NCBI GenBank assembly: GCA_965220745.1
Contig: CBDCQT010000007.1
Span: 1 to 64,000, forward strand
DNA length: 64,000 nucleotides
Reading direction: 5' to 3'
Source: Alphaproteobacteria bacterium
GTDB lineage: Bacteria > Pseudomonadota > Alphaproteobacteria > UBA828
Below are positions 10,681 through 60,927 of this stretch, one piece after another; the first letter of the stretch is position 1; each line of letters opens with the position of its first letter. The notes under the pieces were generated by a model, which saw only the letters and a list, made by a program, of their open reading frames with translations, made no database searches and was not told the DNA's origin. Both the position numbers and the translations under genes were made by a program.

Positions 10681-11505
10681 GTGTCCACGAGGGGCGCTGC
10701 CAGCGGCGCGCAAGTCATCGAGCGGAGCATCAAGACCCACGGCGCCGACGCCTTCGCGGCAATGCGCAAGGCCGGCACGCTCGCGGCGGAGGTGCTGGAT
10801 GCGTTGACGCCGATGGTCGAGCCCGGCGTCACCACCGACGCCCTCGACCGGTTCTGCCACGACTACATCGTGGACCACGGGGCGGTGCCGGCGCCGCTCG
10901 GCTACCGCGGCTACCCGAAGTCCATCTGCACCTCGGTCAATCACGTCGTCTGCCACGGAATCCCCGGCGACAAGCGGCTGCAGAAGGGCGACATGCTGAA
11001 CATCGACGTGACCGTGATCCTCGACGGCTGGCACGGGGATACCAGCCGCATGTTCCACGTCGGCCAGCCGAGCGTGAAGGCGCGCCGGCTGATCGACATC
11101 ACCTATGAGGCGATGATGCGCGGCATCGCGGCGGTGAGGCCCGGCGCCCGGCTCGGCGATATCGGCCACGCGATCCAGAGTTATGCCGAGGGCCAGCGCT
11201 GCGCCGTGGTACGCGATTTCTGCGGCCACGGCATCGGGCGCATCTTCCACGACGCGCCGAACGTGTTGCACTACGGCAAGCCCGGCACCGGCACCCAGCT
11301 CAGGCCCGGCATGTTCTTCACCGTCGAGCCCATGATCAATCTCGGCGGCTGGCAGGTGAAGCTGCTCAAGGACGGCTGGACCGCGGTGACCAAGGACCGC
11401 TCGCTCTCAGCCCAGTTCGAGCACACGATTGGTGTGACCGGGGATGGTCACGAGATATTCACGCTCTCCCCGCTCGGGCTCACCAAGCCGCCCTATAACA
11501 GTTGA
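10681..11505 (+). CDS. map: Type I methionyl aminopeptidase
   Basis: CTSVNHVVCHGIP, NIDVT...GWHGDTSR, GHGIG, FTVEPMIN and AQFEHT. Confidence 0.97.
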   Translation: MSTRGAASGAQVIERSIKTHGADAFAAMRKAGTLAAEVLDALTPMVEPGVTTDALDRFCHDYIVDHGAVPAPLGYRGYPKSICTSVNHVVCHGIPGDKRLQKGDMLNIDVTVILDGWHGDTSRMFHVGQPSVKARRLIDITYEAMMRGIAAVRPGARLGDIGHAIQSYAEGQRCAVVRDFCGHGIGRIFHDAPNVLHYGKPGTGTQLRPGMFFTVEPMINLGGWQVKLLKDGWTAVTKDRSLSAQFEHTIGVTGDGHEIFTLSPLGLTKPPYNS

Positions 11506-11518
11506 GGTCGCCGCTGCC

Positions 11519-12205
11519 GTGGCGGACAAGCCCCATTTTCACGGCCATCGCGAACGGTTGCGCAAGCGCTTCGACGAGGCGGGCGCTGACGCCCTGCCCG
11601 ACTACGAGCTTCTGGAGCTGCTGCTCTGCCAGGCGCTGCCCAGGCGCGACGTCAAGCCGCTCGCCAAGCGGCTGATCGAGCGCTTCGGCACCATCGGCGG
11701 CGTGCTCGGCGCCGAGAAGGGGGCGTTGAAGGAGGTGGCAGGCGTCGGCGATGGCGTGGTCCACACGCTCAAGCTGGTCGAGGCGCTCGGCGTGCGCACG
11801 CTGCGGGAGCCGATCATCGGCCGCCCGGTCATCGCCACCTGGCAGGCGGTGCTGGACTACTGCACCGCGCGGCTCGGCAAGGAAAAGACCGAGCACTTTC
11901 GCGTGCTCTTCCTCGACAACCACAACGCGCTGATCGCCGACGAGGAGCAGCAGCACGGCACGGTCGACCATGTGGTGCTCTATCCGCGCGAGGTGATTAA
12001 GCGGGCGCTGGAGCACGGTGCGAGTGCGGTCGTGCTCGTGCACAACCACCCCTCGGGCAACCCCAGCCCGTCACGCGCTGATATCGAGCTCACCAAGGAG
12101 GTCGCGAAGGCCGGCGCCACGTTGGGCGTCACCGTCCACGATCACCTGGTGATCGGCCGCTCCCGCCACGTCTCCTTCAAGGAGGCAGGCCTGCTGCCGG
12201 ACTGA
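11519..12205 (+). CDS. radC: RadC / JAB-domain protein
   Basis: GHRERLRKRF, YELLELLL, YPREV and HNHPSG...PSRAD (JAMM motif). Probable GTG start 11519. Confidence 0.93.
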   Translation: MADKPHFHGHRERLRKRFDEAGADALPDYELLELLLCQALPRRDVKPLAKRLIERFGTIGGVLGAEKGALKEVAGVGDGVVHTLKLVEALGVRTLREPIIGRPVIATWQAVLDYCTARLGKEKTEHFRVLFLDNHNALIADEEQQHGTVDHVVLYPREVIKRALEHGASAVVLVHNHPSGNPSPSRADIELTKEVAKAGATLGVTVHDHLVIGRSRHVSFKEAGLLPD

Positions 12206-12394
12206 GGACGCGCGGCCCCCTGATGGGAATTCTAGGCCAAGCGACGCGGAGGCACCGGCCCCAGGCCAGCTGCCGTGAGCGATCGTGCGTTCCGCGCATA
12301 CGCGCGCGGCGCTGTCGCGCCGTCCGGGCCTGCGGCCCGGCCTTTCTTGCCGGACGCTTCGTCCAAGGCCGCGCGCGGCGTGAGTCTCCACTAA

Positions 12395-12514
12395 CAGGCT
12401 GCTGAAAACCCTTCGGACCCAACCGATGATTCCCTTCTGTTCTAAATTCGATTCTCATTCGTTCCTGCGTTTTCTTAGAACAAGGTGAGAACATAGGAGT
12501 TTTTCAGCAGCCTG
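12395..12514. mobile_element. 120-bp MITE with IS5/IS1182-like ends
   Basis: Perfect 14-bp terminal inverted repeat CAGGCTGCTGAAAA (12395-12408) / TTTTCAGCAGCCTG (12501-12514). Flanked by CTAA direct repeats (12391-12394 and 12515-12518). AT-rich interior, no transposase. Confidence 0.8.
12478..12492 (+). promoter_or_regulatory. Putative alphaproteobacterial LexA (SOS) box
   Basis: GAAC-AAGGTGA-GAAC matches GAAC-N7-GAAC, the reverse complement of GTTC-N7-GTTC. It lies inside the MITE. Confidence 0.6.
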
Positions 12515-12521
12515 CTAAGGC

Positions 12522-12595
12522 GTCATGGCCGCGCTTGTTGCGGCCATCCACGTGGGTGCCGCGGAGAAAGATGCCCGGATCAAGTCCGGCATGAC
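12522..12595. repeat. REP-like palindromic element of the alphaproteobacterial GTCATG...CATGAC type
   Basis: GTCATGGCCGCGCTTGTTGCGGCCATCCAC...GATGCCCGGATCAAGTCCGGCATGAC: two internal hairpins with inverted GTCATG/CATGAC ends. Confidence 0.7.
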
Positions 12596-12721
12596 GAGTA
12601 TGGGAATGGCCGCGCGGGGCTCGGACCCGGTAGCCCGCAACATGGTGCGGTGGAAGGCGCGGGCGGCGCGGGGCAGCATCGCGGGATGAGCCAGGAACCA
12701 TCCCGCGAGCACAGCCACGCC

Positions 12722-13459
12722 ATGCAGAACGAACCCCCCAAGAGCACAACGGCCGGGACGTTCGGCCGCTTCTCCATCGACCGCCTGCCGGCCAAGCTGC
12801 GCAAGGCCGTCGATCAGGCCATCGCGGACGGCGCCACCATCGATGAGATCACCGCCCGCATCCGGGCCGAAGGCGAGACATGCTCGCGCTCGGCCGTCGG
12901 CCGCTACGCCAAGAACATGCGCGACCTGATCCGCCAGCAGCAGGAGACCGATCGCACCATCAAGGCGTGGGTGGATGCGCTGGGCGAGCGCCCGGAGGGC
13001 CGCACCGCGCTCATCCTGATCGAGACCCTGCGGACCATGGTTCTCGCCACCATGGCCAAGCTCAGCGCGCGGGAAGAGCCCGTGTCGACGCAGGAGCTTG
13101 CCCGCCTCGCCCTCACCCTCAAGCGCATCGAAGGCACCGACAAGCTCCGCAAAGACCGGGAGCGGGCGGCGAAGAAGGCCGCGCAGGGCGCCGGCCAGGC
13201 CAAGGGCCAGGGCGGGCTCTCGCCGGAGGCGGTCGCCATCATCCGCGCGGAGGTGGAGGGCCCGACGCCCCCACCGCCGCCCCGTATCGTCACGCCCCCG
13301 CCTCCGCCCCGCACCGTTACGTCGGTGCCGGTGGACCCGTGGAACCCTACGGAATCCAACTTAATCCCAGCTGATCCCGGCGAGTCCCGCCCAAAAAATG
13401 AGCGGCGCGCGTCTCAACACATTGCTTATTCCAGCTGGCTCTGTCCCCCTCCCCTCTAA
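12722..13459 (+). CDS. DUF3486 / phage Mu Gp27-like protein with a Pro-rich C-terminal extension
   Basis: SIDRLPAKLRKAVDQAIADGATIDEITARIRAEGETCSRSAVGRY matches the Gp27-family HTH-like N-terminus, and GLSPEAVAIIR lies near the end of the conserved part. Start 12686 or 12722. Confidence 0.7.
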   Translation: MQNEPPKSTTAGTFGRFSIDRLPAKLRKAVDQAIADGATIDEITARIRAEGETCSRSAVGRYAKNMRDLIRQQQETDRTIKAWVDALGERPEGRTALILIETLRTMVLATMAKLSAREEPVSTQELARLALTLKRIEGTDKLRKDRERAAKKAAQGAGQAKGQGGLSPEAVAIIRAEVEGPTPPPPPRIVTPPPPPRTVTSVPVDPWNPTESNLIPADPGESRPKNERRASQHIAYSSWLCPPPL

Positions 13460-13545
13460 CAAGGCGGAGGGGGAACGCAGGTGGCGCCGCCCTCTCTCCC
13501 TCTCCTCCCCGGCGGGGAGGAGAGGGCCGGGGCGAGGAGGGGCGG
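13444..13545. repeat. REP-like palindromic cluster (CCCTCTCC...GGAGAGGG type)
   Basis: TCCCCCTCC..GGAGGGGGA and CCCTCTCCTCCCC-GGC-GGGGAGGAGAGGG hairpins between convergent genes. Confidence 0.6.
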
Positions 13546-13600: not shown

Positions 13601-13774
13601 CTACGCCTCGCCCTCTCGACGCTCGGCAAGCTGAGCGCATTTCTCGCCGCAGAAGACCCGTCGCTCCGGCTCCTCGACCACCCAAAGGCGGCGCGCGATC
13701 ATGCGCCCGCAGAGCGAGCAGTTGACGATCTTTACCTCGTACCAGGGCTTTTCGATCTCTTCCCAATGCCCCAT
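13601..13774 (-). CDS. Small Cys4 (CxxC...CxxxC) putative metal-binding protein, 57 aa; partner of hydantoinase A/B fusion copy 1
   Basis: Not in the ORF track (<60 aa). Manual translation MGHWEEIEKPWYEVKIVNCSLCGRMIARRLWVVEEPERRVFCGEKCAQLAERREGEA*. Starts 9 bp after the hydantoinase stop and is a clear paralog of 56880-57119. Confidence 0.85.
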   Translation of the reverse strand: MGHWEEIEKPWYEVKIVNCSLCGRMIARRLWVVEEPERRVFCGEKCAQLAERREGEA

Positions 13775-13783
13775 GGCCGCCCC

Positions 13784-16700
13784 CTATTCGGCTGCCACTG
13801 CGGAAGGCGAGACGGTCGCGGGCGCCGCCGGCGGCTCGGGCCGCGCGGTGCGCATCCGGGTGCGGAGCGCCTCGGTCGCGGCCTCGTCCACCGCGAGGGA
13901 GCCGTTGCTGGCGGCGAGCACCACCCCGTAAGCGCTCTCGGCCGCCTCGCGCGTGACGTTGCGGTCCAGCACATCTGCAAGCACCCGCGCCGGCGCCCGC
14001 TCCAGCGGGTCGCCGTAGCCGCCTCCGCCCGGCGCCTCCAGCAGCAGCTCGTCGCCTTCGTGGACCTTGACGTTGTCGAACTTGGTCGGGCTCTCCAGCC
14101 CGAAGGCCTCGGAGAAGGTGCGGAACTCCGTGTCGCCCACCCGCTTGACCCGGAACGCCTGGGTGCCGCCTTCCTTTCCACCGAACAGCCCCCAGGGACC
14201 CACGAAGTGGCGGTCGGAAAGCGCGCTAACCGTCAGCTCCTTGGCGTACACGCTCACCCGGCGCATGACCGAGAGGCCGCCCCGGTTGCGCCCCGGCCCG
14301 CCGGAATCCGGGCGCAGCGCGCAGGTGTGGTGAAGCAGCGGGAAGCGGCTCTCCAGAATCTCGATGGGCGTGATCTCGATCGTGCTGCCGTGGGCACAGA
14401 ACAGGTTGGCGTTGCCGTCCGCGTCGTGGCGCGCACCCCAGCCGCCGCCTTCGAGATGAAGGTGGGCGAAATACTCGCCGGTCTCCGGGTGCACGCCGCC
14501 CATCGGCAGCAGGCAGTTGGTCCCGCCATCGGCGGCGCAGGTTCGCTCCGGCAAGGCCTGCGACATGGCGCCCCAAATTGCGTTAATGACTCGCGGCTGG
14601 CCGTCGGAGTTGCCGCCGACCGAACTGCCCGGATGCTCGACATTGAGCAGGCTGCCGGGCGGGCAGATCATCGTGATGGTGCGGAACACGCCCTGATTGA
14701 GGGGCACGTCGCGGACGTTGATGCTCTGGAGGATGCCGGTGTAGGAGGCGGCCGCCGTCGCCACATAGGTCAGGTTGATCGCGGCATCGACCTGCTTGTC
14801 GGAGCGGCTGTAGTCGACCAGAATCTCGTCGTCGTCCACCGTCACGTCGACGCGGAAGACATGGGGCGTGCTGTTCCGGGGATCGTCCTCGTAGCGGTCC
14901 TCGAAGGAATAGGTGCCGTCCGGAATCGCCTTGATCTGCTCGCGCATCCAGCGCTCGGAGGCCGCCATCAGCGCCTTGGTCGCCGCCTCGATCGTGTCCA
15001 CGCCGTAGTCCCGGATCAGCTCCGGAAAACGGCGGCCTGCCACCTTGAGGCTCGCCAGCATGGCGTGGAAGTCGCCGAAGGTCGCATCCGGGGTGCGGTG
15101 GTTGGCGAGGATGACCTTCCACAGTTCCTCGACATGCTCGCCGCGCTTCATCAGCTTGATCGGAGGCAGCCGCAGCCCCTCCTGATAGACCTCGCTCGCG
15201 GTGACCGCGAAGGAGCCCGGCACCATGCCGCCGATCTCGGCGATGTGAGCGATGATCGCCGCGTAGCCGACCAGCTCGCCGTCCACGAAGATGCCTTCCA
15301 GCAGCATGTGTTCGGGCATGTGGCAGGAGCCCCGGTAGGGGTCGTTGTGGACGACCACGTCGCCCGGCTCGAAGTAGTCCTCGCCCAGTTCCTCGACCAC
15401 GAAGGGCACCGTGTTCAAGCCGGCGCAGATGATCGCCGGGTTGTTCTGCGCCTGGGAGATCAGCTCCAGGTCGCGGTTGAACAGCATGCAGGAGAAGTCC
15501 TTGGACTCGCTGAAGAGCGGCGAGTGCGCGGTACGCAGGGCCTCCAGGTCCATCTCGTCGCAGATCGCATCGAGCCGGTTGCGGATGACGTTGAGCGTCA
15601 CCATGTCCTCCGCCGCGCTCTTGCCCTGGAGCCGTGCCCGGCGCGCACCGCTCGCGGGTGCGATCTCCAGCACGCCGGAGCCATGCACGATCAGTCTATC
15701 GTCGGGCGCCACGATCACCGTGGAGTCCTCTTCGAGGATGACCGCCGGACCTTCCATCGTGATGTCCGCGCCCAGCGACTCCCGCTGGTAGACCGGCGTC
15801 TCCACCCCGCCTGTGCCGCGGAACCAGACCACGCGCCTGGCCGCCGGCTCGGGCGCATCGCCGGGCTCTAGCCCCGGCAGGCGCGGCGGCGCCGACGCGC
15901 CGAGCGCGAGCACCGTGAGCCGCACGATCTCCACCGGGTGGCCCGGCGTCTTGAAGTCGAAGCGTCGCTCGTGCTCGGCGTGGAAGGTCTCCACCAGCTC
16001 CAGAGCCGTGCCCGCCAGCACGCTCGGCGTCACCGGCAGCTCGATCTCGTGGCTCTGCAGCCGGTAGCGGGCGGATGCGCTGCGCGTGATCACCGGCTCG
16101 CCCTCGAACCCCTCTTCCAGCAGCTCGCGCACCGCCTGCTCTTCGAGCGAACGGTAGGCGTCGGCGATGTCGCTGAGCGCCATCGTGTCGGAGCGGAAGG
16201 CGACCGTCCGGCTCTTCTCCACGCGGACGTCGGCGACCACAGTGCCGAAGGCGGAGCAGAGCCCCGGATAGGGCGGCACCAGGGTCCGCCGCATGCCGAC
16301 TGCACGTGCGAGCTCGGCACCGTGGACCGGGCCCGCGCCGCCGAAGGCGATCAGGTCGAAATCGCGATAATCGAGGCCGCGCTCGATGGTGACGCGGCGC
16401 ACCGCCGTCGCCATGTTGTCGTTGACGGTCTCCACGATGGTGAGCGCGGCCTCCTCGACCGTGAGGCCGAGCGGCTCAGCCACCGTTGCCACCGCCGCGC
16501 GTGCCGCGGCACTGTCGAGCGGCATCCGCCCGCCGAGGAAGTAGTCGGGGTCGATGCGGCCGAGCACCACGTTGGCGTCGGTCACCGTGGGCTTCGTCCC
16601 GCCCTTGCCGTAGCAGGCCGGGCCGGGCTCCGCGCCGGCGCTCTGCGGCCCCACCTTGAGCAGGCCGTCCTGCCCTACATAGGCGATCGAGCCGCCGCCG

Positions 16701-17704
16701 GCGCCGATGGTGGTGAAGTCGATATGCGGGGCAACGACGTGGATGCCCCAGTCGAGGTCGATCTGCGGCACGGAGCGATAATCGCCGCCTTCGATCATGC
16801 CCACGTCGCAGCTCGTGCCGCCCATGTCGAAGGTGACGGCATTCTCCGCGCCCTCGGCGGCGGCGAAGTAGTGGCCGCCGATCACACCGCCGGCGAGACC
16901 GGAAAGAAAGATCTCGGCGGTGCGGTCCGGCGCCCGTTCCGAGAGCATCTGGCCGCCGTTGGATTTCATGATAGCGAGCCGGGCGGGCAGCGAGCGTGCC
17001 TCCAGCTCCCGCTCGAGATCGGTGATGAAGCTCTGCAGGATGGGCCGGACCGAGGCGGCAAGGATGGTCGTGGTCGCCCGGTGGTACTCGCGCCAGATGG
17101 GCACGACCTCGTGAGAGAGGGAGACCGGGAGACCGGGGAAGCGCTCGCGGAGCGCCTCGCCAAGCGCGGCCTCGTGCACAGGATTGCGATAGCTGAACAG
17201 GAAGTTGACTGCGATGGAGCAGGCCGCGCCGGCGCCGTTGGCGCCATTGCCGCTCTCGCCCAGCACGGCCGCCACCTGGTCGAGGACGCGGACGACCTCG
17301 GCGTCTTCCAGCGCCGTGATCACGTGGCCGTGGTAGTCGATCCGCTCGCGCACGCCCAGGCAGTCGCGCCGCGCCACGCCCGGCTCCGGCCGGCGCCAGC
17401 TCAGGTCGTAGGCGTGGGGGCGCGAAATGCTGCCGATCAGCGGAATGTCCTCGAAGCCTGCCGTCGCGAGGTAGATGACGCGCGCACCGGTGCCCTGAAG
17501 GCGCGCGTTGGTCGCGATGGTGGTCCCGAGCACGAAGTGGCGCACCGCCTCCGGCGCGATGCCGGAGCCGTCGAGGGCGTCGAGCACCCCGATTTCAGGC
17601 GCGGCGGCGGTGCTCGGCCGCTTGGCGACGACAATCCCGCCGTCCTCGTCGATAGCGACGAGATCGGTGTTGGTGCCTCCCGTATCGACCCCGACTCGCA
17701 GCAT
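13784..17704 (-). CDS. Fused hydantoinase/oxoprolinase A+B family ATP-dependent enzyme (copy 1)
   Basis: A half: VGVDTGGTNTD, FDMGGTSCD, IGAGGGS, GPQSAGAEPGPACY. B half: SESKDFSC, HNDPYRGSCHMPEH, AHIAEIGG, GGGGYGDP. Start ATG 17704 after GAGGAGG. Confidence 0.92.
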   Translation of the reverse strand: MLRVGVDTGGTNTDLVAIDEDGGIVVAKRPSTAAAPEIGVLDALDGSGIAPEAVRHFVLGTTIATNARLQGTGARVIYLATAGFEDIPLIGSISRPHAYDLSWRRPEPGVARRDCLGVRERIDYHGHVITALEDAEVVRVLDQVAAVLGESGNGANGAGAACSIAVNFLFSYRNPVHEAALGEALRERFPGLPVSLSHEVVPIWREYHRATTTILAASVRPILQSFITDLERELEARSLPARLAIMKSNGGQMLSERAPDRTAEIFLSGLAGGVIGGHYFAAAEGAENAVTFDMGGTSCDVGMIEGGDYRSVPQIDLDWGIHVVAPHIDFTTIGAGGGSIAYVGQDGLLKVGPQSAGAEPGPACYGKGGTKPTVTDANVVLGRIDPDYFLGGRMPLDSAAARAAVATVAEPLGLTVEEAALTIVETVNDNMATAVRRVTIERGLDYRDFDLIAFGGAGPVHGAELARAVGMRRTLVPPYPGLCSAFGTVVADVRVEKSRTVAFRSDTMALSDIADAYRSLEEQAVRELLEEGFEGEPVITRSASARYRLQSHEIELPVTPSVLAGTALELVETFHAEHERRFDFKTPGHPVEIVRLTVLALGASAPPRLPGLEPGDAPEPAARRVVWFRGTGGVETPVYQRESLGADITMEGPAVILEEDSTVIVAPDDRLIVHGSGVLEIAPASGARRARLQGKSAAEDMVTLNVIRNRLDAICDEMDLEALRTAHSPLFSESKDFSCMLFNRDLELISQAQNNPAIICAGLNTVPFVVEELGEDYFEPGDVVVHNDPYRGSCHMPEHMLLEGIFVDGELVGYAAIIAHIAEIGGMVPGSFAVTASEVYQEGLRLPPIKLMKRGEHVEELWKVILANHRTPDATFGDFHAMLASLKVAGRRFPELIRDYGVDTIEAATKALMAASERWMREQIKAIPDGTYSFEDRYEDDPRNSTPHVFRVDVTVDDDEILVDYSRSDKQVDAAINLTYVATAAASYTGILQSINVRDVPLNQGVFRTITMICPPGSLLNVEHPGSSVGGNSDGQPRVINAIWGAMSQALPERTCAADGGTNCLLPMGGVHPETGEYFAHLHLEGGGWGARHDADGNANLFCAHGSTIEITPIEILESRFPLLHHTCALRPDSGGPGRNRGGLSVMRRVSVYAKELTVSALSDRHFVGPWGLFGGKEGGTQAFRVKRVGDTEFRTFSEAFGLESPTKFDNVKVHEGDELLLEAPGGGGYGDPLERAPARVLADVLDRNVTREAAESAYGVVLAASNGSLAVDEAATEALRTRMRTARPEPPAAPATVSPSAVAAE

Positions 17705-17718
17705 CCTGCGTCCCTCCT

Positions 17719-18666
17719 CTAGCTCGTGCCAAACGCCTTGCGCAGCGCGGCGCAGGCGGTGGCGTGTGCCTCGGCGGCCACGTCGAAGCGCCCGGTTGCG
17801 GTCCAGAAGCCGTGGATGTGGCCCTCGTAGTTGCGGTAGTCGGTGGGCACACCCGCCGCCTTGAGCCTCTCGGCGTATTCGCGGCCGTCGTCGAAGAGCG
17901 GATCGTGGCTCGCGGTCATCACCATCGCCGGCGGCAACCCGCTCAGGTCGTCGGCGCGGATCGGCGCAGCCCGCACGTCCGAGCGCTCGGAGTCGTCGTT
18001 GAAGTAGCAATCGAAGAACCAGGTCATGGCCTCGGCGGTGAGCACGTAGCCGTCCGCGAAGGTCTTGTAGGACGGGCGGCCTTCGTCCGTGTCGGTGACC
18101 GGATAGACCATGAGCTGGAAGACCAGCGGTGGCCCGCCCTCGGCTTTCGCCCGCTGCGCGGTGACGGCGGTAATGCAGCCGCCGGCGGAATCGCCACCGA
18201 TGGCGATGCGTGCCGGATCGCCGCCGATCTCGGCGGAGTTCTCGGCGACCCAGCAAAGCGACGCCCAGGCGTCGTCCGTGGGCTTCGGAAACTTGTTCTC
18301 CGGCGCCTTGCAATAGTTGACCCCCACCACGATACAGCCCGCTCCCTCGCAGAGCGCGCGGCAGACACCGTCGTGGGTGTCGATGCTGAGCACCACGTAG
18401 CCGCTGCCGTGGTAGTTGACGTAGACCGGCAGCGGTGTGGCGGGGTCCGCCCCTTTGGGCCAGTAGAGGCGGATACGGATCGGCCCGTTGGGGCCGGGGA
18501 TATCGCGGTCCTCGACCCGGCCGACGTCAATGCCCGGTGCCTGCAGGCCCATCACCAGATCGTTGAAGGCCTCCCGTACCTCGTCGAGCGGCCGTTCCGC
18601 GAGCGGCGGCACCTCGATCGCGTTGATTTCGTCGCAGAACTCCTGAACCTGCGGATGCAGTGCCAT
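17719..18666 (-). CDS. Alpha/beta hydrolase (HSL-family esterase/lipase)
   Basis: YHGSGY oxyanion motif, GGDSAGG nucleophile elbow, DPL and HGF. Confidence 0.9.
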   Translation of the reverse strand: MALHPQVQEFCDEINAIEVPPLAERPLDEVREAFNDLVMGLQAPGIDVGRVEDRDIPGPNGPIRIRLYWPKGADPATPLPVYVNYHGSGYVVLSIDTHDGVCRALCEGAGCIVVGVNYCKAPENKFPKPTDDAWASLCWVAENSAEIGGDPARIAIGGDSAGGCITAVTAQRAKAEGGPPLVFQLMVYPVTDTDEGRPSYKTFADGYVLTAEAMTWFFDCYFNDDSERSDVRAAPIRADDLSGLPPAMVMTASHDPLFDDGREYAERLKAAGVPTDYRNYEGHIHGFWTATGRFDVAAEAHATACAALRKAFGTS

Positions 18667-18806
18667 GATCTCCCCCTCGCGCGTCGTGCTGTCTCCCTGC
18701 CACATCTTAGCGGTGGCTACCCGATTGCGGAAACCGGTGCCGGAACCGATCCGGCACGCAACATGGGACGCGCCGGGTCGTCAACTGCAGAGGGGCCGCC
18801 CGCGCG

Positions 18807-19808
18807 TCACTCCAGCCTCACCACCGTGCCGCTAGTCGCCGATTCATGTGCCGCGAGCACGGCCCGCACAACCTCCATCGCTTCCTCCGGCGTGATCAAC
18901 GCCGGGCGCGTGCCCTCGCGGACGCAGCGCGCGAAGTAAGACCATTCCTCGTGCAATGCACCGCCTGTGACGCCGTGCAGCTCCGGCCAGTAGGTCGTGT
19001 CCGGGCTCCTGAAGCCCTCCTTCGAGCAGACGGCGATGTTGGGGAAGGTATCCTGGATGTGGATGAAGCCCTCGGTGCCGATCACCGACATACGCTCGTC
19101 GAGCTCGAAGGGCGAGCCGTCCGGCATGCACCAGGCACCCTCGTAGAGCGCGCTCGCGCCGTTGTCGAAGCGGTACATGAGCTGGGCCACGTCGTCATTC
19201 CGGCAGCCAAGCGAGTTGACGGTCTGTGCGTATGTGCTCACGACCTTCGCTCCGGTCAACCATAGCATCATGTCGGTATCGTGGGAGCAGGTGTGCAGAA
19301 TGGGGCCGATCGTCTCGAGCTGATCGATCACCCACCGCGCCGGCACGTTGCGCCGGGCGTTGATCGCGACCACCTTGCCGATTTGGCCCGCGTCAATCTC
19401 GCGCTTGGCGGCGATATAGCGCGGGTTGAAGCGGCAGATATGGCCTACCATGAGAATGGCGTCGCCATCGCGCGCGGCATCGCACATGCGCTGGCAGTCC
19501 TCCACCGTCGATGCCATAGGCTTCTCGACCAGGACGTGCTTGCCGGCCGCGAGCCCGGCGAGGGTCGGGGCGGCGTGGTGGTCCCAGGGCGTGACGACGG
19601 CAAGGACGTCAATCGCCGGGTCCTCGACAAGCACCCGGTAGTCGGTGCAGGTGCGGGCGACACCGTGCTCGTGCGCCATCTCAGCCAGGCGTTCTTCCGA
19701 GTTGTCGCAAAGCGCAACGAGCTCGAGCTGCGGATGGTCGGCGATAGCCCGGCAATGCACCGTCCCGAACCAGCCGACCCCGATGACTCCGACACGTAGC
19801 CGCTCCAT
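18807..19808 (-). CDS. Gfo/Idh/MocA-family NAD(P)-dependent oxidoreductase
   Basis: VGVIGVGWFG, AGKHVLVEKPM and HDTD. Confidence 0.9.
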   Translation of the reverse strand: MERLRVGVIGVGWFGTVHCRAIADHPQLELVALCDNSEERLAEMAHEHGVARTCTDYRVLVEDPAIDVLAVVTPWDHHAAPTLAGLAAGKHVLVEKPMASTVEDCQRMCDAARDGDAILMVGHICRFNPRYIAAKREIDAGQIGKVVAINARRNVPARWVIDQLETIGPILHTCSHDTDMMLWLTGAKVVSTYAQTVNSLGCRNDDVAQLMYRFDNGASALYEGAWCMPDGSPFELDERMSVIGTEGFIHIQDTFPNIAVCSKEGFRSPDTTYWPELHGVTGGALHEEWSYFARCVREGTRPALITPEEAMEVVRAVLAAHESATSGTVVRLE

Positions 19809-19959
19809 TGATCCCGCTCCGTCCTTTGTCAATCAATCTGCTAACGTCGAAGCCTGCGGCGGAGTGTTCCACACGAGCCTCGGTTTGCGGAAGGACGCTA
19901 GTTCGGGTCGCTTGCCGGGACAACACTGAGAGCGCTCGGCCAACCGCCTCGATGTTGGC

Positions 19960-25787: not shown

Positions 25788-26657
25788 TCACGGTTGCCGG
25801 GCGCAGTGCTGGTAGGTCTCGGGCCGGCGGTCGCGGAAGAACTGCCACGTGTCGCGGACCTCGCGAATCTGGTCGAGGTCGAGCTCGGCAACCACCAGTT
25901 CGTCGTCCTGATCGCCACCCTGCGCCAAGATCTCGCCGCGCGGATTACAGAAGTAGCTGGAGCCGTAGAACACGTGGTTGCCGAAGCTCGGCTCGGTGCC
26001 GACGCGGTTGTTGGTGCCGATGAAGATGCCGTTGGCGATGGCGGCCCCCACCTGCTCCAGGTTCCAGATGTGATCGCTGAGGCCCTTGAAGGTCGCCGAC
26101 GGGTTGAACACCAGCTCCGCGCCGCCCAATGCGAGCGCGCGCCAGCCCTCGGGGAAGTGGCGGTCATAGCAGATATAGACCCCGACCTTGCCGACGGCCG
26201 TATCGAACACCGGGTAGCCGAGATCGCCGTAAGCGAAATAATGCTTCTCGTCGTAGGGCCCGATCTTCGGAATGTGAATCTTGCGGAACTTGCCGAGGTA
26301 GCTGCCATCCGCATCGATCACCGCGGCGGTGTTATAGAACTTGCCACTGTGGTCGCGCTCGTAGACCGGCGAGACGATGACCATGCCGTGCTTCTTGGCC
26401 GCGTCGCACATCGCCTGGGTGGTGGGCCCGTCCGGCACCGCCTCGGCGGACTCGAACCACTTTTCGTCGATGGTGGCGGGGAAGTAGGGCGCGTTGAAGA
26501 CCTCCTGGAGCCCGAGAACCTGCACGCCCTTTTGCGCCGCCTCCTCGATAAGCGTCATGTGCGCGGCGACCATCTTGTCGCGGATCGTCTCGATGGAGTC
26601 CGTCGCCGGGTCCCCCTTCAGGTTCATCTGAATGAGGGCTGCCTTGACCTTGCGCAT
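25788..26657 (-). CDS. Nitrilase-superfamily N-carbamoyl amidohydrolase (beta-ureidopropionase-like), copy 2
   Basis: GLQEVF, FRKIHIP and YICYDRHFPE give the Glu-Lys-Cys triad; also NNRVG and FYGSSY. Confidence 0.88.
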   Translation of the reverse strand: MRKVKAALIQMNLKGDPATDSIETIRDKMVAAHMTLIEEAAQKGVQVLGLQEVFNAPYFPATIDEKWFESAEAVPDGPTTQAMCDAAKKHGMVIVSPVYERDHSGKFYNTAAVIDADGSYLGKFRKIHIPKIGPYDEKHYFAYGDLGYPVFDTAVGKVGVYICYDRHFPEGWRALALGGAELVFNPSATFKGLSDHIWNLEQVGAAIANGIFIGTNNRVGTEPSFGNHVFYGSSYFCNPRGEILAQGGDQDDELVVAELDLDQIREVRDTWQFFRDRRPETYQHCARQP

Positions 26658-26681
26658 GAAAGCCTCCTCTCGCTCGCCCGC

Positions 26682-27560
26682 TCAGACCTGCCACGATGCC
26701 ACTGCGCCGTAGGTCTCGGGTCTGCGATCGCGGTAGAACTTCCACCCGTCCCGCACCTCAGCGATCATGGTGAGGTCGAGATCGGCGGTGACCAGCGCGT
26801 CCCGATCGTCCGGACCCTGGTCGAGTATCTCGCCGCGCGGATTGACGAAGTAGCTGGAGCCGTAGAAGTAGCCGGTGTTCCACGGCGTCTCCATGCCGAC
26901 GCGGTTGTTGGCGCCGATGTAGACGCAGTTCGCCACCGCGGCCGCCGGCTGTTCCAGGTTCCAGAGATGGTCGCTCAGGCCCCGCGCGGTCGCAGACGGG
27001 TTGAAGATCACCTCGGCGCCGTTCATGGCGAGCTCGCGCCAACCTTCGGGGAAGTGCCGGTCGTAACAGATGTAGACGCCGACCTTGCAGAACGCGGTCT
27101 CGAAGACCGGATAGCCGATGTCGCCCGGCTTGAAGTAGTACTTCTCGCAGAAGCCGACGACGTGGGGGATATGAATCTTGCGGAACTTGCCGAGGTAGCG
27201 CCCGTCTGCGTCGATCACGGCGGCGGTGTTGTAGTAGACGCCGGTCTGCGCCTCCTCATAGACCGGCACCACCATCGCCATGCCGAGGCGCGCGGCTTCC
27301 GTCCGCATGCGCTGGACCGTCGGCCCGTCGGGCACCCGCTCCGCGGTGCGGTACCAGGAGTTGTCCTGCACCGCGCCGATGTAGGGCAGGTTGAAGAGCT
27401 CCTGCAGGCCCAGAACTTGCACGCCTTCGCTCGCCGCTTGCTCGATCAGGGGCAAGTGGGCTGCGATCATCTTCTCGCTGATCTGCTCGGGCGTGTCGTG
27501 CTCGACCTCGCCCTTGAGGCTCATCTGGATGAGCCCGGCCTTCACCGTCGCCATCGCCAC
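26682..27560 (-). CDS. Nitrilase-superfamily N-carbamoyl amidohydrolase (beta-ureidopropionase-like), copy 1
   Basis: GLQELF, FRKIHIP, YICYDRHFPE and RDRRPETY. Confidence 0.88.
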   Translation of the reverse strand: MAMATVKAGLIQMSLKGEVEHDTPEQISEKMIAAHLPLIEQAASEGVQVLGLQELFNLPYIGAVQDNSWYRTAERVPDGPTVQRMRTEAARLGMAMVVPVYEEAQTGVYYNTAAVIDADGRYLGKFRKIHIPHVVGFCEKYYFKPGDIGYPVFETAFCKVGVYICYDRHFPEGWRELAMNGAEVIFNPSATARGLSDHLWNLEQPAAAVANCVYIGANNRVGMETPWNTGYFYGSSYFVNPRGEILDQGPDDRDALVTADLDLTMIAEVRDGWKFYRDRRPETYGAVASWQV

Positions 27561-27633
27561 CGCTCCCTCGCTACACCGAAGCCGGCAGCCTAGCCCGGAA
27601 CGCCTACCGGGGTCACGGTCCGCGCGTCGCGCG

Positions 27634-33780: not shown

Positions 33781-33966
33781 ATGGACGAGGAAGCGGTCCG
33801 CATCCCGCGCGAGCAGGAATGGACCCCGCGCGTGCTCGACGACATGTCGGTCGACGCACTCAACGCTTACGCCGAACAGCTTGAAGAGGAGCTGGAGCGG
33901 GTGCGCGGCGCCATCCACGCGAAGACGGACTACCTGAGCAAGGCGGACTCGCTGTTCAAGAGCTAG
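33781..33966 (+). CDS. DUF1192-family small protein
   Basis: LDDMSVDALNAYAEQLEEELERV...ADSLFKS. RBS AGGAG before ATG 33781; divergent from the quinone oxidoreductase. Confidence 0.75.
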   Translation: MDEEAVRIPREQEWTPRVLDDMSVDALNAYAEQLEEELERVRGAIHAKTDYLSKADSLFKS

Positions 33967-34675: not shown

Positions 34676-34677
34676 CG

Positions 34678-38192: not shown

Positions 38193-38218
38193 GGCCGCAC
38201 CTTCGCCACCCGGAGCCC

Positions 38219-48939: not shown

Positions 48940-49086
48940 TCCTCGCGGTTTAGAGCAAAAGGCCGCCCCTGTCATCCGCGAGGCGGTTGCGCGCTCATGC
49001 GCGCGCGGACTTGACGGTGTCCCGCGCTTGACCGATACGCGCGTTCCCTCTAAAGAAGCCGCTCTCTCATCCACGGAGCGCGAACC

Positions 49087-55709: not shown

Positions 55710-55817
55710 CGGGCGGGAGAAAGATCGGGCGGGTGTCAATGCGGCTGCAGCCGGCCTCGGGTCGCATGTCTCGCCCCGTGATACCATCGACCGGCAGTAG
55801 AGCGTAGGGAGGTGAGC

Positions 55818-56786
55818 ATGGCGGCGAAACCGGTCGGCTGGGGCATGATCGGCACGCGGGGCTGGAGCGACATGATCCTTGGCCCGGCGATCAATGCGGC
55901 GCGGGGCGCCCGGTTCAAGGCCGTGCTGTCCACGAAGCAGGAGAACGCCGAGCGCTACTGCGCGAGCCACGGCGTGGCCCGCGGCTACACGGACCTCGAG
56001 GCCTTCCTCGCCGATCCCGCCGTCGACGTGGTGTGGATCGCGAGCCCCAACCACCTGCACAGGGACCAGACCATCGCCGCGCTCAAGGCTGGCAAGCACG
56101 TGCTCTGCGAAAAGCCTATGGCGATGAACCAAGCCGAATGCCGGGCGATGATCAGGGCTGCCAAGAAGGCCGAGCGCCTGCTCACCATCGGCTACAACAG
56201 CCGCCACCACCCCAGGCTAGATAGGCTGCGGGAGCAGTGGCAGGCCGGCCGCTTCGGCGAACCGGTGCACATGCACTGCCAGTTCCGCTACCGCTACCCC
56301 GAAGTGCCCGACGACTGGTGGCGCCTCGACGACGCGAAATCGGGCTGCTGGGTGCTGGGCGATATCGGCACCCACTTCATCGACCTGCTGCGCTGGTTCA
56401 ACGGCGAGGCGAAGACGGTCCACGCCCATCTCGCCAATAAGGCCTACGGGCGCTCGGCTGACACTGCCGCGGTCTCCATCGGCTTCGCGAACGGTGCCTT
56501 CGGCACGATCACGGCCTCCACCGCCGTGACCACCGGCGGCGGGTTCGAGCTGCTCGGCAGCGAGAGCTGTTGCACGATCGAGGGCGGCTTCGTCGGCATC
56601 CCGGGCACCATGACCACGGTGCGAAAGGGCGGTAAGCCGCGTACCGTCTCGCTCGCGGGCTACGACACCTACAAGGCCCAAGTGGAGAGTATCACCCGCG
56701 CCATTGCCCGCGGCACACCGCTCGCGGTCACGGCCCAGGACGGGCTCGCCAACGTCCGCGTCATCGAGCAGGCGCGCGGCTGGTAA
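55818..56786 (+). CDS. Gfo/Idh/MocA-family oxidoreductase
   Basis: GWGMIG, AGKHVLCEKPM and DIGTHFID. Confidence 0.9.
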   Translation: MAAKPVGWGMIGTRGWSDMILGPAINAARGARFKAVLSTKQENAERYCASHGVARGYTDLEAFLADPAVDVVWIASPNHLHRDQTIAALKAGKHVLCEKPMAMNQAECRAMIRAAKKAERLLTIGYNSRHHPRLDRLREQWQAGRFGEPVHMHCQFRYRYPEVPDDWWRLDDAKSGCWVLGDIGTHFIDLLRWFNGEAKTVHAHLANKAYGRSADTAAVSIGFANGAFGTITASTAVTTGGGFELLGSESCCTIEGGFVGIPGTMTTVRKGGKPRTVSLAGYDTYKAQVESITRAIARGTPLAVTAQDGLANVRVIEQARGW

Positions 56787-56879: not shown

Positions 56880-57119
56880 ATGAGCGGCAAGTGGCTCCCG
56901 TTTGGGCTCGCCTGGTACGACACGCGAATTTTCAACTGCTCCTTCTGCGGCATCATGATGGCGCGGGAATACTGGGTGGACGACGAGTTCCCCGGCGAGA
57001 TGTTCTGCGAGGACAAGTGCGCAGACGTGAAGCGCCGCGTGCGCGCCGAGTTCGCCGAGGCGAAGGCGGCCGGCCGCGTCGAGGAAGCGCGCCACGGCGA
57101 GGAGGCAAGCGATGTATAG
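56880..57119 (+). CDS. Small Cys4 putative metal-binding protein, 79 aa; partner of hydantoinase A/B fusion copy 2
   Basis: MSGKWLPFGLAWYDTRIFNCSFCGIMMAREYWVDDEFPGEMFCEDKCA... RBS GGGGAGAG; overlaps the downstream start by 8 bp; paralog of 13601-13774. Confidence 0.85.
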   Translation: MSGKWLPFGLAWYDTRIFNCSFCGIMMAREYWVDDEFPGEMFCEDKCADVKRRVRAEFAEAKAAGRVEEARHGEEASDV

Positions 57120-60100
57120 GGTCGGCATCGACACCGGCGGCACGTTCACGGACCTGGTCGCGCTGGACGACGCGAGCGGCCACATCCGCACCGTCAAGGT
57201 TCCCTCCACACCGCAGCAGCCCGCCGCCGCGCCACTCAACGCCATCGGCCAGAGCCGGCTCACACCGGACGAGATCGGCCGCATCGTGCTCGGCACCACC
57301 ATCGCCACCAACGCGCGCCTCCAGAAGAAGGGCGCGACCGTGCTCTACGTCGGCACCGACGGCGTGCAGGACGTGCCCATCATCGGGCTGATCGCGCGCA
57401 AGGAGGCTTACAACCCGGCGTGGGAGAAGCCCAGTACCGGCGTGCTGCGCCGCCATGTCTTCGGCATCAAGGAGCGCGTCGATCACAAGGGCAACATCTT
57501 GGTCCCGCTGGAAAAGCCCGAGCTGGAGCGGCTCGGCGACTGGATCGACGAATGGCGCAAGAGCGACCCCGCGCAGGAGTGGGCGGTCGCGGTCAACCTG
57601 CTCTTCTCCTATGTCGATACCAGCCACGAGGAGGCCATCGGTGCCTACCTGGCCGAGCGCTTCCCCGACCTGCCGGTTTCGCTCTCCAGCGATGTCTGCC
57701 CGATCTGGCGCGAGTATCAACGCAGCGCCACGGTCATCACCGACGCATTCATCAAGCGCATCATCGACCGCTTCGTGGGCCAAGTCTCGGCCGACCTGGA
57801 GACGGCGGGGATCGAGGCGCCGCTCTCGCTGATGAAGTCGAACGGCGGCCATCTGCAGGCGGAATCCGCCGGTGATGCGCCGGTCCAGCTGCTGCTCTCG
57901 GGCCTCGCCGGCGGGGTCATCGCCGGCGCCCGCTTCGCCCGCGATCACGCGGACGGCAACGGCGTCACCCTCGACATGGGCGGCACCAGCTGCGACGTCG
58001 GCCTCGTCACCGACGGCGCCTTCGGCTCAACCACCGAGTACGAGGTGGAGTGGGGCGTGCCGGTGAGCGCGCTCTTCATCGACTACACCACCATCGGCGC
58101 GGGCGGCGGCTCCATCGCCTATGTCGACGTGGGCGGCCTGCTCCGCGTGGGACCTCGCAGCGCAGGTGCCGACCCCGGCCCTGCCTGCTACGGCCAGGGC
58201 GGGACCGAGCCGACGGTCACCGACGCCAACGTGGTGCTCGGCCGTCTCGACCCCGACTACTTCCTGGGCGGCGAGATGACGCTGGACGCCGCCAAGGCGC
58301 AGGAGGCGGTGGCCGGGCTCGGCCAGAAACTCGGTCTCACGGCAGTGGAGACCGCGCGCGCGATCCTGGAGACCGCGGCCGAGAACATGGCGGACGCGAT
58401 CCGCCTCATGACGGTCGAGCGCGGCATCGATCACCGCGACTATGCCCTTATCGCGTTCGGCGGCGCAGGCCCGCTCCACGCCGTTGATGTCGCGGCTCCG
58501 CTGGAGATGAAGAAGGTCGTCGTGCCGCCGCATCCGGGGCTCTGCTCGGCGCTCGGCACGCTGCTCACCGACCTCCGCGTCGACCGCGCACGCACGGTCA
58601 ACCACCGCTCGGACACGGTGGACCTCCCCACCCTCAACAGCCAGCTCCAGGCGCTTGCCCGCGAGGCGGTGGAGGAGCTCAAGCGCGATGGGCTGGAGGG
58701 CGAGGCGCGCGTCACCGGCTACATCAGCATGCGCTACATGGGCCAGAACTTCGGCGAGCTGGTGCAGCTCGACACCCTGGAGCTCGACGAGGACGGCTTC
58801 GCGCGGGCGCTGGAAGGGCTCCACCGCCAGCACGAGGAGCTCTACGGCTACGCGCTCCGCGACAAGGTCGCCGAGATGACCGAGGTGCGGGTGATCGCCG
58901 TCGGCGAGGAGCGCACCGATGCGACGCTGAGCGCGCCCGCCGTGGGCTCGGGCCACGCCCATGCCCACCGCGAGGTCTACTTCGACGGCGACACGCCGCT
59001 GGAAACGCCGATCTACCGCCGCTCGGAGCTCCCCGCAGGCTCCGTGGTCGCAGGCCCCGCTATCATCGACGAGATGGACTCCACCACCCTCGTGCCACCG
59101 CAGAGCGAGGTGGAGATCGGCGCCGACGGCAGCCTCATCGTGAGCCTGCCGAGGGCCGCGAGCGCTGCGGTCGGCACCGGGCGGCTCGCGCCGGAGAAGG
59201 ACCCGGTCACGCTCACGGTGGTCAACAACGCGCTCGGCAACATCTGCAACGAGATGGAAAGCGCCATGGTGCGCACCGCGTATTCGCCGATCTTCAGCGA
59301 ATCGCGAGACTTCTCGTGCTGCCTGTTCGACCGTCGCCTGCGCATGGTGGGCCAGGCCGAGATGAACCCGGCGATCATCTGCGCCGGCCTGCACACGGTG
59401 CCGCTCTGCGTGAAAGAGATGGAGGAGCCGATCGAGCAAGGCGACGTGATCGTCCACAACGATCCCTACCGCGGCCAGTGCCACATGCCGGAGCATCTGC
59501 TGATGAAGCCGGTCTTCGTCGACGGCACGCTGATCGGCTACGCCGCCAACATCGCACACATTGCCGAGATCGGCGGCATGGCAGTGGGCTCCTTCGCCAG
59601 TACCGCCACCGAGGTGTTCCAGGAGGGGCTCCGGCTGCCCCCGGTGAAGCTGCTCTCGCGCGGCGAATACGTGAAGGACGTCTGGCGCATCGCGCTCGCC
59701 AATCACCGCACCCCCAACACCACCTGGGGCGACTTCCACGCGATGATCGGCTCGCTCAACACCGCCGAGCAGCGCCTCGGCGCGCTGGTGAAGCGCCTCG
59801 GCGTCGAGACCTTCGAGAAGATCTGCGACGCGCTCGTGGACCACGCCGAGCACTGGATGCGGAACGAGATCCGCAAGCTCCCCAACGGCATCTACAAGGC
59901 CGAGGACTACTTCGAGGACGACGGGGTCAGCACCGACCGCTTCTACTTCCGCCCCACCGTGCACATCCGGGAGGAGGAGATCGTGGTCGACCTCTCGGAA
60001 TCGGACGAGCAGGCGCGGGGGCCGATCAACGTCACCTACGTGGCGACCGCCGCTGCCGGCTGCACCGCGGTGCTGCAGACCCTCTGTGCCCGCGATGTGC

Positions 60101-60927
60101 CGCTCAACAGCGGCTGCTTCAAGCCGCTCCGCGTGGTAGCACCTCCGGGAACGGTCGCGAACCCGGTTTTCCCCGCGCCGAGCGTCGCCGGCAACACCGA
60201 GGGCCAGCCCCGCATCATCGCGGCGGTGCAGCACGCGCTCTCCAAGGCCGTGCCGGACATGGTGAGCGCCGCCGAGGGCGGCACCGCATGCAACCTGCTG
60301 CTCGGCGGAATCCACCCCGATACCGGCGAGTATTGGACCCACTACCAGCTCGAAGGCGGCGGTTGGGGCGGCCGGCTCGGCAAGGACGGCAACACCGCAC
60401 TCTGCTGCGCGCACGCGAGCACCATCCGGGCGACGCCGATCGAGGTGTTCGAGACCCGCTTCCCGCTCCGTGTGATGAAGTACGAGATCCGCCCCGATTC
60501 AGGCGGCGCGGGCAAGTGGCGGGGCGGGCTCGGCTGCTGGCGCCAGTTCGAGGTGATTGCGGATGCGATCAGCGTAAGCGCGCTCACCGACCGCATCACC
60601 GAGGGACCCTATGGGCTGATGAAGGGGGAGGCCGGCGCGCCCACGGGCTTCTTCGTCAAGCGCGTGGAAGACGAAGAGTTCCGCACCTTCAAGGAGGTCT
60701 ACGGTACCGTAAGCCCGACCAAGTTCGTCAACATCCGGCTGCACCGGGGCGACCAGATCCTGGTCCGCGTGCCGGGGGGCGGCGGCTACGGCGACCCGCA
60801 CGAGCGGGCGGAGGACGCGCTCCGCGCCGATCTGGAGGACGGTTTCGTCAGCGTGGAAGGGCTCTCGGCCTATGGCCGTGACGCGAGCTTCGCCGACGCG
60901 GTGAAGGAAGCCGCCGCAGCGGAATAG
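57112..60927 (+). CDS. Fused hydantoinase/oxoprolinase A+B family ATP-dependent enzyme (copy 2)
   Basis: IDTGGTFTD, DMGGTSCD, GPRSAGADPGPACY, SESRDFSC, HNDPYRGQCHMPEH, AHIAEIGG and GGGGYGDP. Confidence 0.92.
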   Translation: MYRVGIDTGGTFTDLVALDDASGHIRTVKVPSTPQQPAAAPLNAIGQSRLTPDEIGRIVLGTTIATNARLQKKGATVLYVGTDGVQDVPIIGLIARKEAYNPAWEKPSTGVLRRHVFGIKERVDHKGNILVPLEKPELERLGDWIDEWRKSDPAQEWAVAVNLLFSYVDTSHEEAIGAYLAERFPDLPVSLSSDVCPIWREYQRSATVITDAFIKRIIDRFVGQVSADLETAGIEAPLSLMKSNGGHLQAESAGDAPVQLLLSGLAGGVIAGARFARDHADGNGVTLDMGGTSCDVGLVTDGAFGSTTEYEVEWGVPVSALFIDYTTIGAGGGSIAYVDVGGLLRVGPRSAGADPGPACYGQGGTEPTVTDANVVLGRLDPDYFLGGEMTLDAAKAQEAVAGLGQKLGLTAVETARAILETAAENMADAIRLMTVERGIDHRDYALIAFGGAGPLHAVDVAAPLEMKKVVVPPHPGLCSALGTLLTDLRVDRARTVNHRSDTVDLPTLNSQLQALAREAVEELKRDGLEGEARVTGYISMRYMGQNFGELVQLDTLELDEDGFARALEGLHRQHEELYGYALRDKVAEMTEVRVIAVGEERTDATLSAPAVGSGHAHAHREVYFDGDTPLETPIYRRSELPAGSVVAGPAIIDEMDSTTLVPPQSEVEIGADGSLIVSLPRAASAAVGTGRLAPEKDPVTLTVVNNALGNICNEMESAMVRTAYSPIFSESRDFSCCLFDRRLRMVGQAEMNPAIICAGLHTVPLCVKEMEEPIEQGDVIVHNDPYRGQCHMPEHLLMKPVFVDGTLIGYAANIAHIAEIGGMAVGSFASTATEVFQEGLRLPPVKLLSRGEYVKDVWRIALANHRTPNTTWGDFHAMIGSLNTAEQRLGALVKRLGVETFEKICDALVDHAEHWMRNEIRKLPNGIYKAEDYFEDDGVSTDRFYFRPTVHIREEEIVVDLSESDEQARGPINVTYVATAAAGCTAVLQTLCARDVPLNSGCFKPLRVVAPPGTVANPVFPAPSVAGNTEGQPRIIAAVQHALSKAVPDMVSAAEGGTACNLLLGGIHPDTGEYWTHYQLEGGGWGGRLGKDGNTALCCAHASTIRATPIEVFETRFPLRVMKYEIRPDSGGAGKWRGGLGCWRQFEVIADAISVSALTDRITEGPYGLMKGEAGAPTGFFVKRVEDEEFRTFKEVYGTVSPTKFVNIRLHRGDQILVRVPGGGGYGDPHERAEDALRADLEDGFVSVEGLSAYGRDASFADAVKEAAAAE

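Follow-up and report, generated by a model that had tools for sequence, protein, structure and literature searches.

A small four-cysteine, TRASH-like finger protein family associated with one clade of HyuB-type hydantoinase/oxoprolinase enzymes

Two modules pairing a small Cys4 gene with a fused HyuA-HyuB gene

The DNA analysed here, hereafter the window, is a stretch of 64,000 nucleotides (nt) of contig CBDCQT010000007.1 from an alphaproteobacterial assembly (GCA_965220745.1; GTDB lineage UBA828). It carries two gene modules in which a small gene for a putative TRASH-like finger protein with four cysteines (Cys4), S1 or S2, lies next to a gene for a fused HyuA-HyuB enzyme of the ATP-dependent hydantoinase/oxoprolinase family, F1 or F2. 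Module 1 is read from the minus strand. Its first gene encodes a Gfo/Idh/MocA oxidoreductase (18807..19832; Pfam PF01408, PF22725 and PF02894) and is followed by an Abhydrolase_3 esterase/lipase-type hydrolase gene (17719..18705; PF07859, E 1.8e-71) directly upstream of F1 (13784..17704; 1306 amino acids, aa), and by S1 as the last gene (13601..13774), a 57-aa open reading frame (ORF) that begins with ATG and has the cysteine pattern C-x2-C-x19-C-x3-C. Module 2 lies on the plus strand, where another Gfo/Idh/MocA oxidoreductase gene, recognised by its Pfam matches (55812..56786; the two oxidoreductases are 28% identical), precedes the 79-aa Cys4 gene S2 (56880..57119) and F2 (57112..60927; 1271 aa). 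F1 and F2 share 50% identity over 1267 residues, and each contains the same set of Pfam domains above cut-off, namely Hydant_A_N (116.8 bits in F1 and 119.7 in F2), Hydantoinase_A (292.5 and 289.3), Hydant_A_C (36.5 and 35.2) and Hydantoinase_B (526.3 and 562.9).

The enzyme and finger genes are tightly spaced in both modules. The minus-strand frame containing F1 is open as far as 18313, and we assigned the start to the methionine of MLRVGVDTGG at 17704, 14 nt past the stop of the upstream esterase gene. The ATG of S1 lies 9 nt beyond the TAG stop of F1 and closely follows a GGGGG run, which could be its ribosome-binding site, while the 3' end of S2 and the ATG of F2 overlap by 8 nt (ATGTATAG). 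We counted this overlap and the 9-nt gap as translational coupling, favouring a partnership between the two products. Furthermore, contigs from the RNA libraries of two studies span the S2/F2 junction in relatives (at ~94% and ~90% identity); these offer a weak hint of co-transcription, but such contigs are no proof of a single transcript and DNA carry-over is possible. When all six frames of the whole window were scanned for the finger motif, exactly two matches were found, S1 and S2.

A preliminary description of this DNA had noted S1 as a 57-aa ORF at 13601-13774, 9 bp past the A+B fusion, and had aligned it with the 79-aa ORF at the second fusion through a common motif. Both observations hold: the ORF is present on the minus strand, and S1 and S2 align with the motif in common and without gaps, with 23 of 55 residues identical (42%; E 5e-16). 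Calculated over the first 50 codons, the ratio of nonsynonymous to synonymous polymorphism (pN/pS) is 0.12 for S1, from 8 distinct orthologous DNA sequences, and 0.33 for S2, from 23 such sequences. Because their relatives are conserved and pN/pS is low, S1 and S2 are real genes under purifying selection; the possibility that S1 is a spurious ORF is ruled out by the same evidence.

Association of the finger family with one HyuB clade

We then searched for relatives of the two small proteins. A word-indexed search returned 18 relatives, which divide into an S1-like and an S2-like subgroup, and a HMMER scan of 1.84 billion cluster representatives yielded at least 150 proteins at E <=1e-3, 21 of them at E <=1e-10. 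The proteins are small, mostly 55-90 aa in length, and 129 of the 166 gathered are no longer than 100 aa. A family alignment of 63 sequences (A3) displays an N-terminal G-x-W...(P)WYET motif, followed by C-x2-C-G-x-M-I-x-R-x2-W and then F-C-x3-C. Many members also carry a C-terminal YW-x-PRYG motif, which S1 and S2 lack. At the positions corresponding to Cys20, Cys23, Cys43 and Cys47 of S2, the first cysteine and the neighbouring G24 are invariant across the 63 sequences and the other three cysteines are at least 90% conserved. The hidden Markov model (HMM) of the family matches S1 with E 1.8e-26 and S2 with E 6.2e-24.

When compared with Pfam and NCBIfam, S1 and S2 matched no model at cut-off, with faint matches to DUF7576, Sgf11, zf-Paramyx-P and YacG. 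In the ESM Atlas, S2 falls among unnamed clusters, the nearest named cluster being zf-FCS. The public names of family members are 'hypothetical protein', 'ribosomal protein L24E' and 'YacG/DUF329', of which the L24E and YacG labels are misnomers. The earlier remark that the small protein is unannotated thus stands with respect to these family databases and names. A full-text literature search, with subscription journals and InterPro outside its scope, gave no account of this finger as a hydantoinase partner. What appears to be new is a putative, non-homologous zinc-finger partner family; the superfamily of its enzyme is already known. One cluster of the family comes from Chloroflexota metagenome-assembled genomes and a Tara mesopelagic sample, and most of the DNA runs in which the window stretch occurs are metagenomes of sponges and corals. 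A phylum-wide comparison with 400 other genomes gave no family match at E <=1e-5, which is weak evidence of rarity because just 14 candidates were scored per genome.

The 4.8-Mb genome has undergone an extreme expansion of HyuB and HyuA paralogues, with 47 Hydantoinase_B matches and about as many HyuA genes; in some symbiont genomes this enzyme family has grown massively. Six-frame translation of the genome gave 44,103 ORFs, of which the A3 HMM picked out three at E <0.01 (a fourth had E 0.17), and all three directly adjoin a fused HyuA-HyuB gene. These are S1, S2 and a divergent third finger ORF (C10:327239-327550, minus strand, L056; E 7e-6), for which MRFSDNGYY is the likely start, giving ~71 aa. 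It lies directly 3' of a fused HyuA-HyuB gene (C10:327581-331960), followed by a HyuA gene and two near-identical HyuB genes, and a weak match corresponding to it recurs in most genomes of the genus. The genome contains six A+B fusions in all, three of which are linked to a finger. It also encodes 128 small ORFs with a generic Cys4 pattern, and the three fingers are the only ones among them to adjoin hyu genes on the same strand.

The same association was seen in related genomes, 40 of 101 of which contain a family match. Matches are present in 38 of 43 genomes of the same taxonomic family and in 1 of 5 from the next one, and the 52 genomes of other families have none. In 44 of 45 such kin loci the small gene adjoins an enzyme gene of the F1 or F2 type; the loci are orthologues rather than independent cases and include three that are the window itself. 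The preliminary description had remarked that the small gene lies downstream of the enzyme in one copy and upstream in the other; this order is kept across the kin loci, in which S1-type genes always lie downstream and S2-type genes always upstream.

In addition, we scanned metagenomes with the YWLPRYG-type sub-alignment as the query and obtained seven loci, six of which are true family members. The remaining locus (L052) was dropped as a chance match, as the similarity spans 20 residues (E 9e-4) and no hydantoinase gene lies close by. All six true loci have HyuA or HyuB within ~100 nt, in the arrangements A-B-finger (L046 and L047), B-finger-A (L050) and finger-A (L049), or with HyuB and the finger fused in frame into one complete protein (680 aa in L048 and 717 aa in L051). 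A similar arrangement is found in P0256, a HyuB of 704 aa in which the finger occupies residues 626-689. Fifteen single-finger matches are longer than 100 aa, and in four of these phmmer confirmed a HyuB segment: P0060, P0071 and P0126 have the C-terminal tail of HyuB and then the finger, and in P0081 the finger is followed by the HyuB N-terminus. In four more (P0073, P0080, P0125 and P0148) the C-terminal tail of HyuB was recognised by eye only. The finger is therefore fused at either end of HyuB. A search for longer finger proteins returned five, namely two of PF02538, one creatininase, one transposase and one of unassigned type; in the creatininase case (P0326), the first half of the finger is joined to PF02633, apparently by a frameshift.

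Together, these data make the link to hydantoinases a strong one: in each informative locus examined the finger gene adjoins a hydantoinase gene or is fused with it, and the link is seen in both gene orders and in fusions. This is in line with the earlier expectation that matches to a family HMM would nearly always adjoin hydantoinase genes (44/45 kin, 6/6 metagenome and 3/3 own-genome loci).

Which feature of the enzyme the finger accompanies was examined in a tree of 53 HyuB domains, made up of 47 paralogues from the genome itself, five metagenomic domains and P0256 (L049 was omitted, its HyuB lying outside the locus), in which the own-genome paralogues are the only unbiased background because it was the finger that led to the metagenomic rows. 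The eight strongly finger-linked HyuB domains form one clade with a Shimodaira-Hasegawa-like approximate likelihood ratio test (SH-aLRT) value of 98, in which A-B fusions stand alongside split enzymes and HyuB-finger fusions. This clade is sister, with support of 100, to seven finger-less paralogues, and the HyuB beside the weak third finger falls outside it. Since split A/B enzymes and HyuB-finger fusions share the clade, and three other fused A+B genes of the genome are finger-less, the partner of the finger is one HyuB clade and not the A+B fusion as such. The preliminary description had assigned the finger to a fused A+B subfamily; its link to hydantoinases is borne out, whereas the partner turns out to be a HyuB clade that includes split enzymes.

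Fold, relatives and probable role of the finger

An AlphaFold2 model of S2 based on A3 (predicted local distance difference test score, pLDDT, 91.7) shows residues 3-7 and 30-34 as short strands and residues 45-73 as a helix. When 44 relatives were scanned with Pfam, the sub-threshold matches were to TRASH_HVO_1752_C (11), DUF7576 (9), Ribosomal_L24e (3) and zf-FCS (3). The best TRASH score was 24.4 bits for P0033 against TRASH_HVO_1752_C, and S1 scored 14 bits against DUF7576, the cut-off being 27 in each case. Compared with PDB sequences, the family profile matched archaeal eL24 best (E 2e-4), followed by the FCS fingers of Polyhomeotic-like 1 and L3MBTL2 and by YacG. With VIA-align, eL24 and the TRASH domain of ZMYM5 gave Z 3.0-3.2, and other small fingers did as well. 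The cysteine spacing of S1 and S2 falls inside the TRASH range, which Ettema et al. 2003 reportedly gave as C-x2-C-x(19-22)-C-x3-C. On sequence grounds we call the family a putative TRASH-like treble-clef finger, the structural matches being too weak to decide the matter. Because four near-invariant cysteines are combined with TRASH-type spacing, S1 and S2 would be expected to bind zinc. A comparison with TRASH/YHS domains, suggested in the preliminary description, is thus favoured by the spacing and the eL24 match, whereas every Pfam family score stays below threshold.

Although the spacing is common to TRASH-type fingers (eL24, TRASH_HVO_1752_C, DUF7576, zf-FCS/MYM and YHS), the S1/S2 family differs from them in falling below every gathering score, in having its own G-x-W...WYET motif and often YW-x-PRYG, and in having an enzyme, rather than a ribosome or a metal pump, as its genomic partner. 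YacG, the DNA gyrase inhibitor, is likewise a small Cys4 finger that acts by binding a large enzyme, but the YacG model NF001638 scores 13.5 bits against a cut-off of 83 and the genomic context is unrelated. In PMC4626032, eL24 is described as a single TRASH domain whose metal is held by four cysteines, and YHS/TRASH domains are also found attached to enzymes.

These relatives bring to mind a nucleic-acid-binding regulator, which would act on how the neighbouring enzyme gene is expressed and would not be bound to the enzyme. The closest relatives, eL24 and the FCS fingers, bind RNA, and the protein is small and basic with its gene at the operon edge. Such a role is nevertheless highly improbable in our estimation, as both the recurrent in-frame fusions, at one end of HyuB or the other, and the co-evolution with one HyuB clade are hard to square with a free regulator.

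A second point of reference is the small Apc-gamma/AcxC subunit (Acetone_carb_G, PF08882), which like S1 and S2 is a four-cysteine protein encoded beside a HyuB-type beta subunit of the same superfamily. The genome has three PF08882 matches of its own (141, 49 and 32 bits), each beside or fused to another HyuB. One is HyuB with an Apc-gamma-type finger at its C-terminus (L055; C10:750300-752639, plus strand), and fusion at this end is thus common to both types of finger. The PF08882 protein at C3:104992-105330 has no cysteine at all. PF08882 did not match S1 or S2 at E <=1, nor any of the 44 relatives at E <=0.01, and the finger family HMM did not match the three PF08882 loci of the genome at E <=10. 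An hhalign comparison of A3 with a 92-aa gamma-type protein gave a probability of 17.8% over 15 columns around one CxxCG knuckle, and the Apc/Acx gamma chain was not among the structural-search matches listed for Foldseek and VIA-align. The spacing C-x2-C-x19-C-x3-C contrasts with C-x2-C-x43-C-x2-C in the gamma-type locus L054; for Apc-gamma itself the cysteines are Cys22/25/75/78 (PMC5214803). In addition, the three HyuB domains partnered by an Apc-gamma-type protein group in a clade of their own (SH-aLRT 99).

One might still regard S1 and S2 as highly diverged Apc-gamma/AcxC proteins, and their enzymes as ketone-carboxylase-like: both small proteins have four cysteines and sit beside a HyuB-type subunit or at its C-terminus, and PMC5214803 describes such a small subunit within the superfamily for carboxylases alone. 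We consider this very doubtful, given that the two profiles do not cross-match, that the hhalign probability is low, that the cysteine spacing differs from both L054 and Apc-gamma, and that the HyuB partners are separated in the tree. The differences extend to the predicted fold, and homology between the two is undetectable. Because the profiles do not cross-match, hhalign gives 17.8% and the spacing differs, the S1/S2 family appears to be an analogue of Apc-gamma/AcxC and not a homologue. In keeping with this, the comparison with AcxC and acetophenone carboxylase small subunits that the preliminary description proposed showed no relation by any test run.

The enzymes themselves point towards lactam chemistry. 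F1 and F2 have the HyuA and HyuB domain set in common with CapAB, HyuAB and OplA-type fused 5-oxoprolinase, and their best NCBIfam matches are caprolactamase alpha and beta (NF050156 and NF050157), with 462.3 and 297.3 bits for F1 and 448.3 and 288.7 bits for F2. These scores lie far under the 1000-bit equivalog cut-off. At distant finger-linked loci the next gene encodes an aminotransferase, of class III at L046:5270-6772 and L051:5223-6605 and of class V at L050:5845-7014. In the degradation of caprolactam, the lactamase step is followed by an aminotransferase, and the downstream aminotransferases fit the opening of a lactam ring to an amino acid that is then transaminated. F1 and F2 may therefore be suspected of hydrolysing lactams, judging from these matches and neighbours. 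F1 and F2 also differ from CapAB in subunit make-up, CapAB being described in PMC8453981 as having two subunits only.

We propose that the finger is probably a structural zinc subunit or domain that, in one clade of ATP-dependent lactamases, would remain docked on the HyuB module. The core of the 55-90-aa protein would be a TRASH/eL24-like Zn(Cys)4 finger with a helix after it, and the finger would bind a single zinc ion structurally. The finger would dock permanently on the HyuB module near the C-terminal tail of HyuB, as a third, 'gamma-like' subunit that in other lineages has become a covalently attached domain. Physical docking on HyuB, and a structural rather than catalytic role, are what we infer from these patterns. 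The arrangement would parallel that of Apc-gamma/AcxC on the ketone carboxylase beta subunit, through an unrelated fold. In Apc, according to Weidenweber et al. (PMC5214803), gamma envelops beta and is held by a C-terminal arm of beta, and the zinc of gamma, distant from the active site, is probably structural. By analogy, the repeated fusion of the finger to the C-terminus of HyuB would match the position of gamma in Apc.

The metal could instead be handled rather than merely held. As a metallochaperone or metal sensor, the finger would bind a transition metal reversibly and either load the catalytic His/Asp metal site of HyuB or turn its enzyme on and off with the metal supply. We regard this as unlikely, though less so than the two alternatives above. 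The nearest relatives of S1 and S2 are TRASH-type domains; TRASH/YHS domains have been proposed as metal sensors or traffickers, with a YHS-adenylyl cyclase fusion serving as a copper switch (PMC4626032), and HyuB-type subunits carry a catalytic metal (PMC8453981). Furthermore, the motif HNDPYRG-x-CHMPEH is invariant in the F2 alignment, and fusion to a client enzyme is also compatible with a metal-handling role. However, four near-invariant cysteines in a treble clef are typical of structural zinc, and the same fold in eL24, FCS fingers and YacG serves to bind a macromolecule and not to transfer metal. A Pfam survey of the window genes also found no metal transporter or metal-regulator gene in either module.

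A number of observations weigh against the proposal of a structural zinc subunit dedicated to one HyuB clade. Structural similarity is weak: a Foldseek search of the PDB gave nothing at E <0.6, the top rows being eL24, the zinc-binding domain of ClpX and YacG at E >=0.7, and the best VIA-align scores (Z 3.5) were to assorted small fingers, so that the assignment of the fold leans mainly on sequence profiles below cut-off. The groups in the tree are defined by the very feature that is counted, and its metagenomic rows were chosen via the finger. One kin locus (L041) has the small gene with no hydantoinase downstream; as its contig ends 74 nt upstream and cuts that side off, the locus is uninformative. 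The two long PF02538 ORFs (P0325 and P0328) resemble frameshifted read-throughs and not true fusions, and hence speak for adjacency only. Adjacency to hydantoinases is not absolute either, because some database ORFs join the finger to other domains, namely a creatininase (P0326), a transposase (P0327) and an MR_MLE_N enzyme (P0090 and P0119). Finally, caprolactamase and other enzymes of the hydantoinase (Hyd) branch work without a third subunit according to PMC8453981 and PMC5214803, the latter stating that this branch lacks Apc-gamma orthologues.

A more tentative extension can be entertained, in which we place somewhat less than even confidence. The whole lactamase clade, which occurs in symbionts of sponges and corals, in Chloroflexota and in further uncultured bacteria, might consist of obligate three-component enzymes that recruited a TRASH-type finger independently of, but convergently with, Apc-gamma/AcxC. 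The finger would be needed for assembly, or would link the alpha module, which uses ATP, with the beta module, which depends on a metal. Were this so, the enzymes could not be reconstituted from the two annotated domains alone. This bears on practice as well, since enzymes of the hydantoinase/oxoprolinase family are used and sought as ATP-driven lactamases (acting on caprolactam, hydantoins and 5-oxoproline), and a small gene missed by gene callers appears to be an integral partner of one HyuB clade. If the finger were required for folding, metal loading or activity, this would explain failed heterologous expression and make co-expression necessary. The finger would also give the superfamily another zinc-finger 'gamma' subunit, independent of the first, and so permit a test of the role of such subunits.

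Other features of the window and the genome

Downstream of module 1, ~75 nt past the stop of S1, lies a 13-bp G+C-rich perfect hairpin on the minus strand (13498..13526; CCCUCUCCUCCCC-GCC-GGGGAGGAGAGGG) that is without a T-run; a 136-nt stretch around it folds with a minimum free energy of -69.1 kcal/mol (z -2.7), and a terminator scan 3' of S1 found none. Directly past the end of the module, a RadC-like JAB gene and a phage Mu Gp27-like gene (11444-13459, plus strand) may be the remnant of a prophage or mobile element beside the operon.

At least 11 of the 47 HyuB-type ORFs of the genome end in ...(A)AAE-stop, including F1 (SAVAAE, 13784-13800), F2 (EAAAAE, 60910-60927) and nine others. The (A)AAE ending may be a conserved C-terminal carboxylate tail or mere composition.

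Elsewhere, the window contains two tandem CN_hydrolase genes and an amidase gene (25788-29043, minus strand), a sarcosine-oxidase-type cluster encoding SoxD, a DAO-type oxidoreductase and a GCV_T/SO_alpha fusion (33956-39460, minus strand), and a gene of the N-formylglutamate amidohydrolase family (48025-49272). It is thus rich in genes for C-N bond hydrolysis and creatine/sarcosine-type catabolism.

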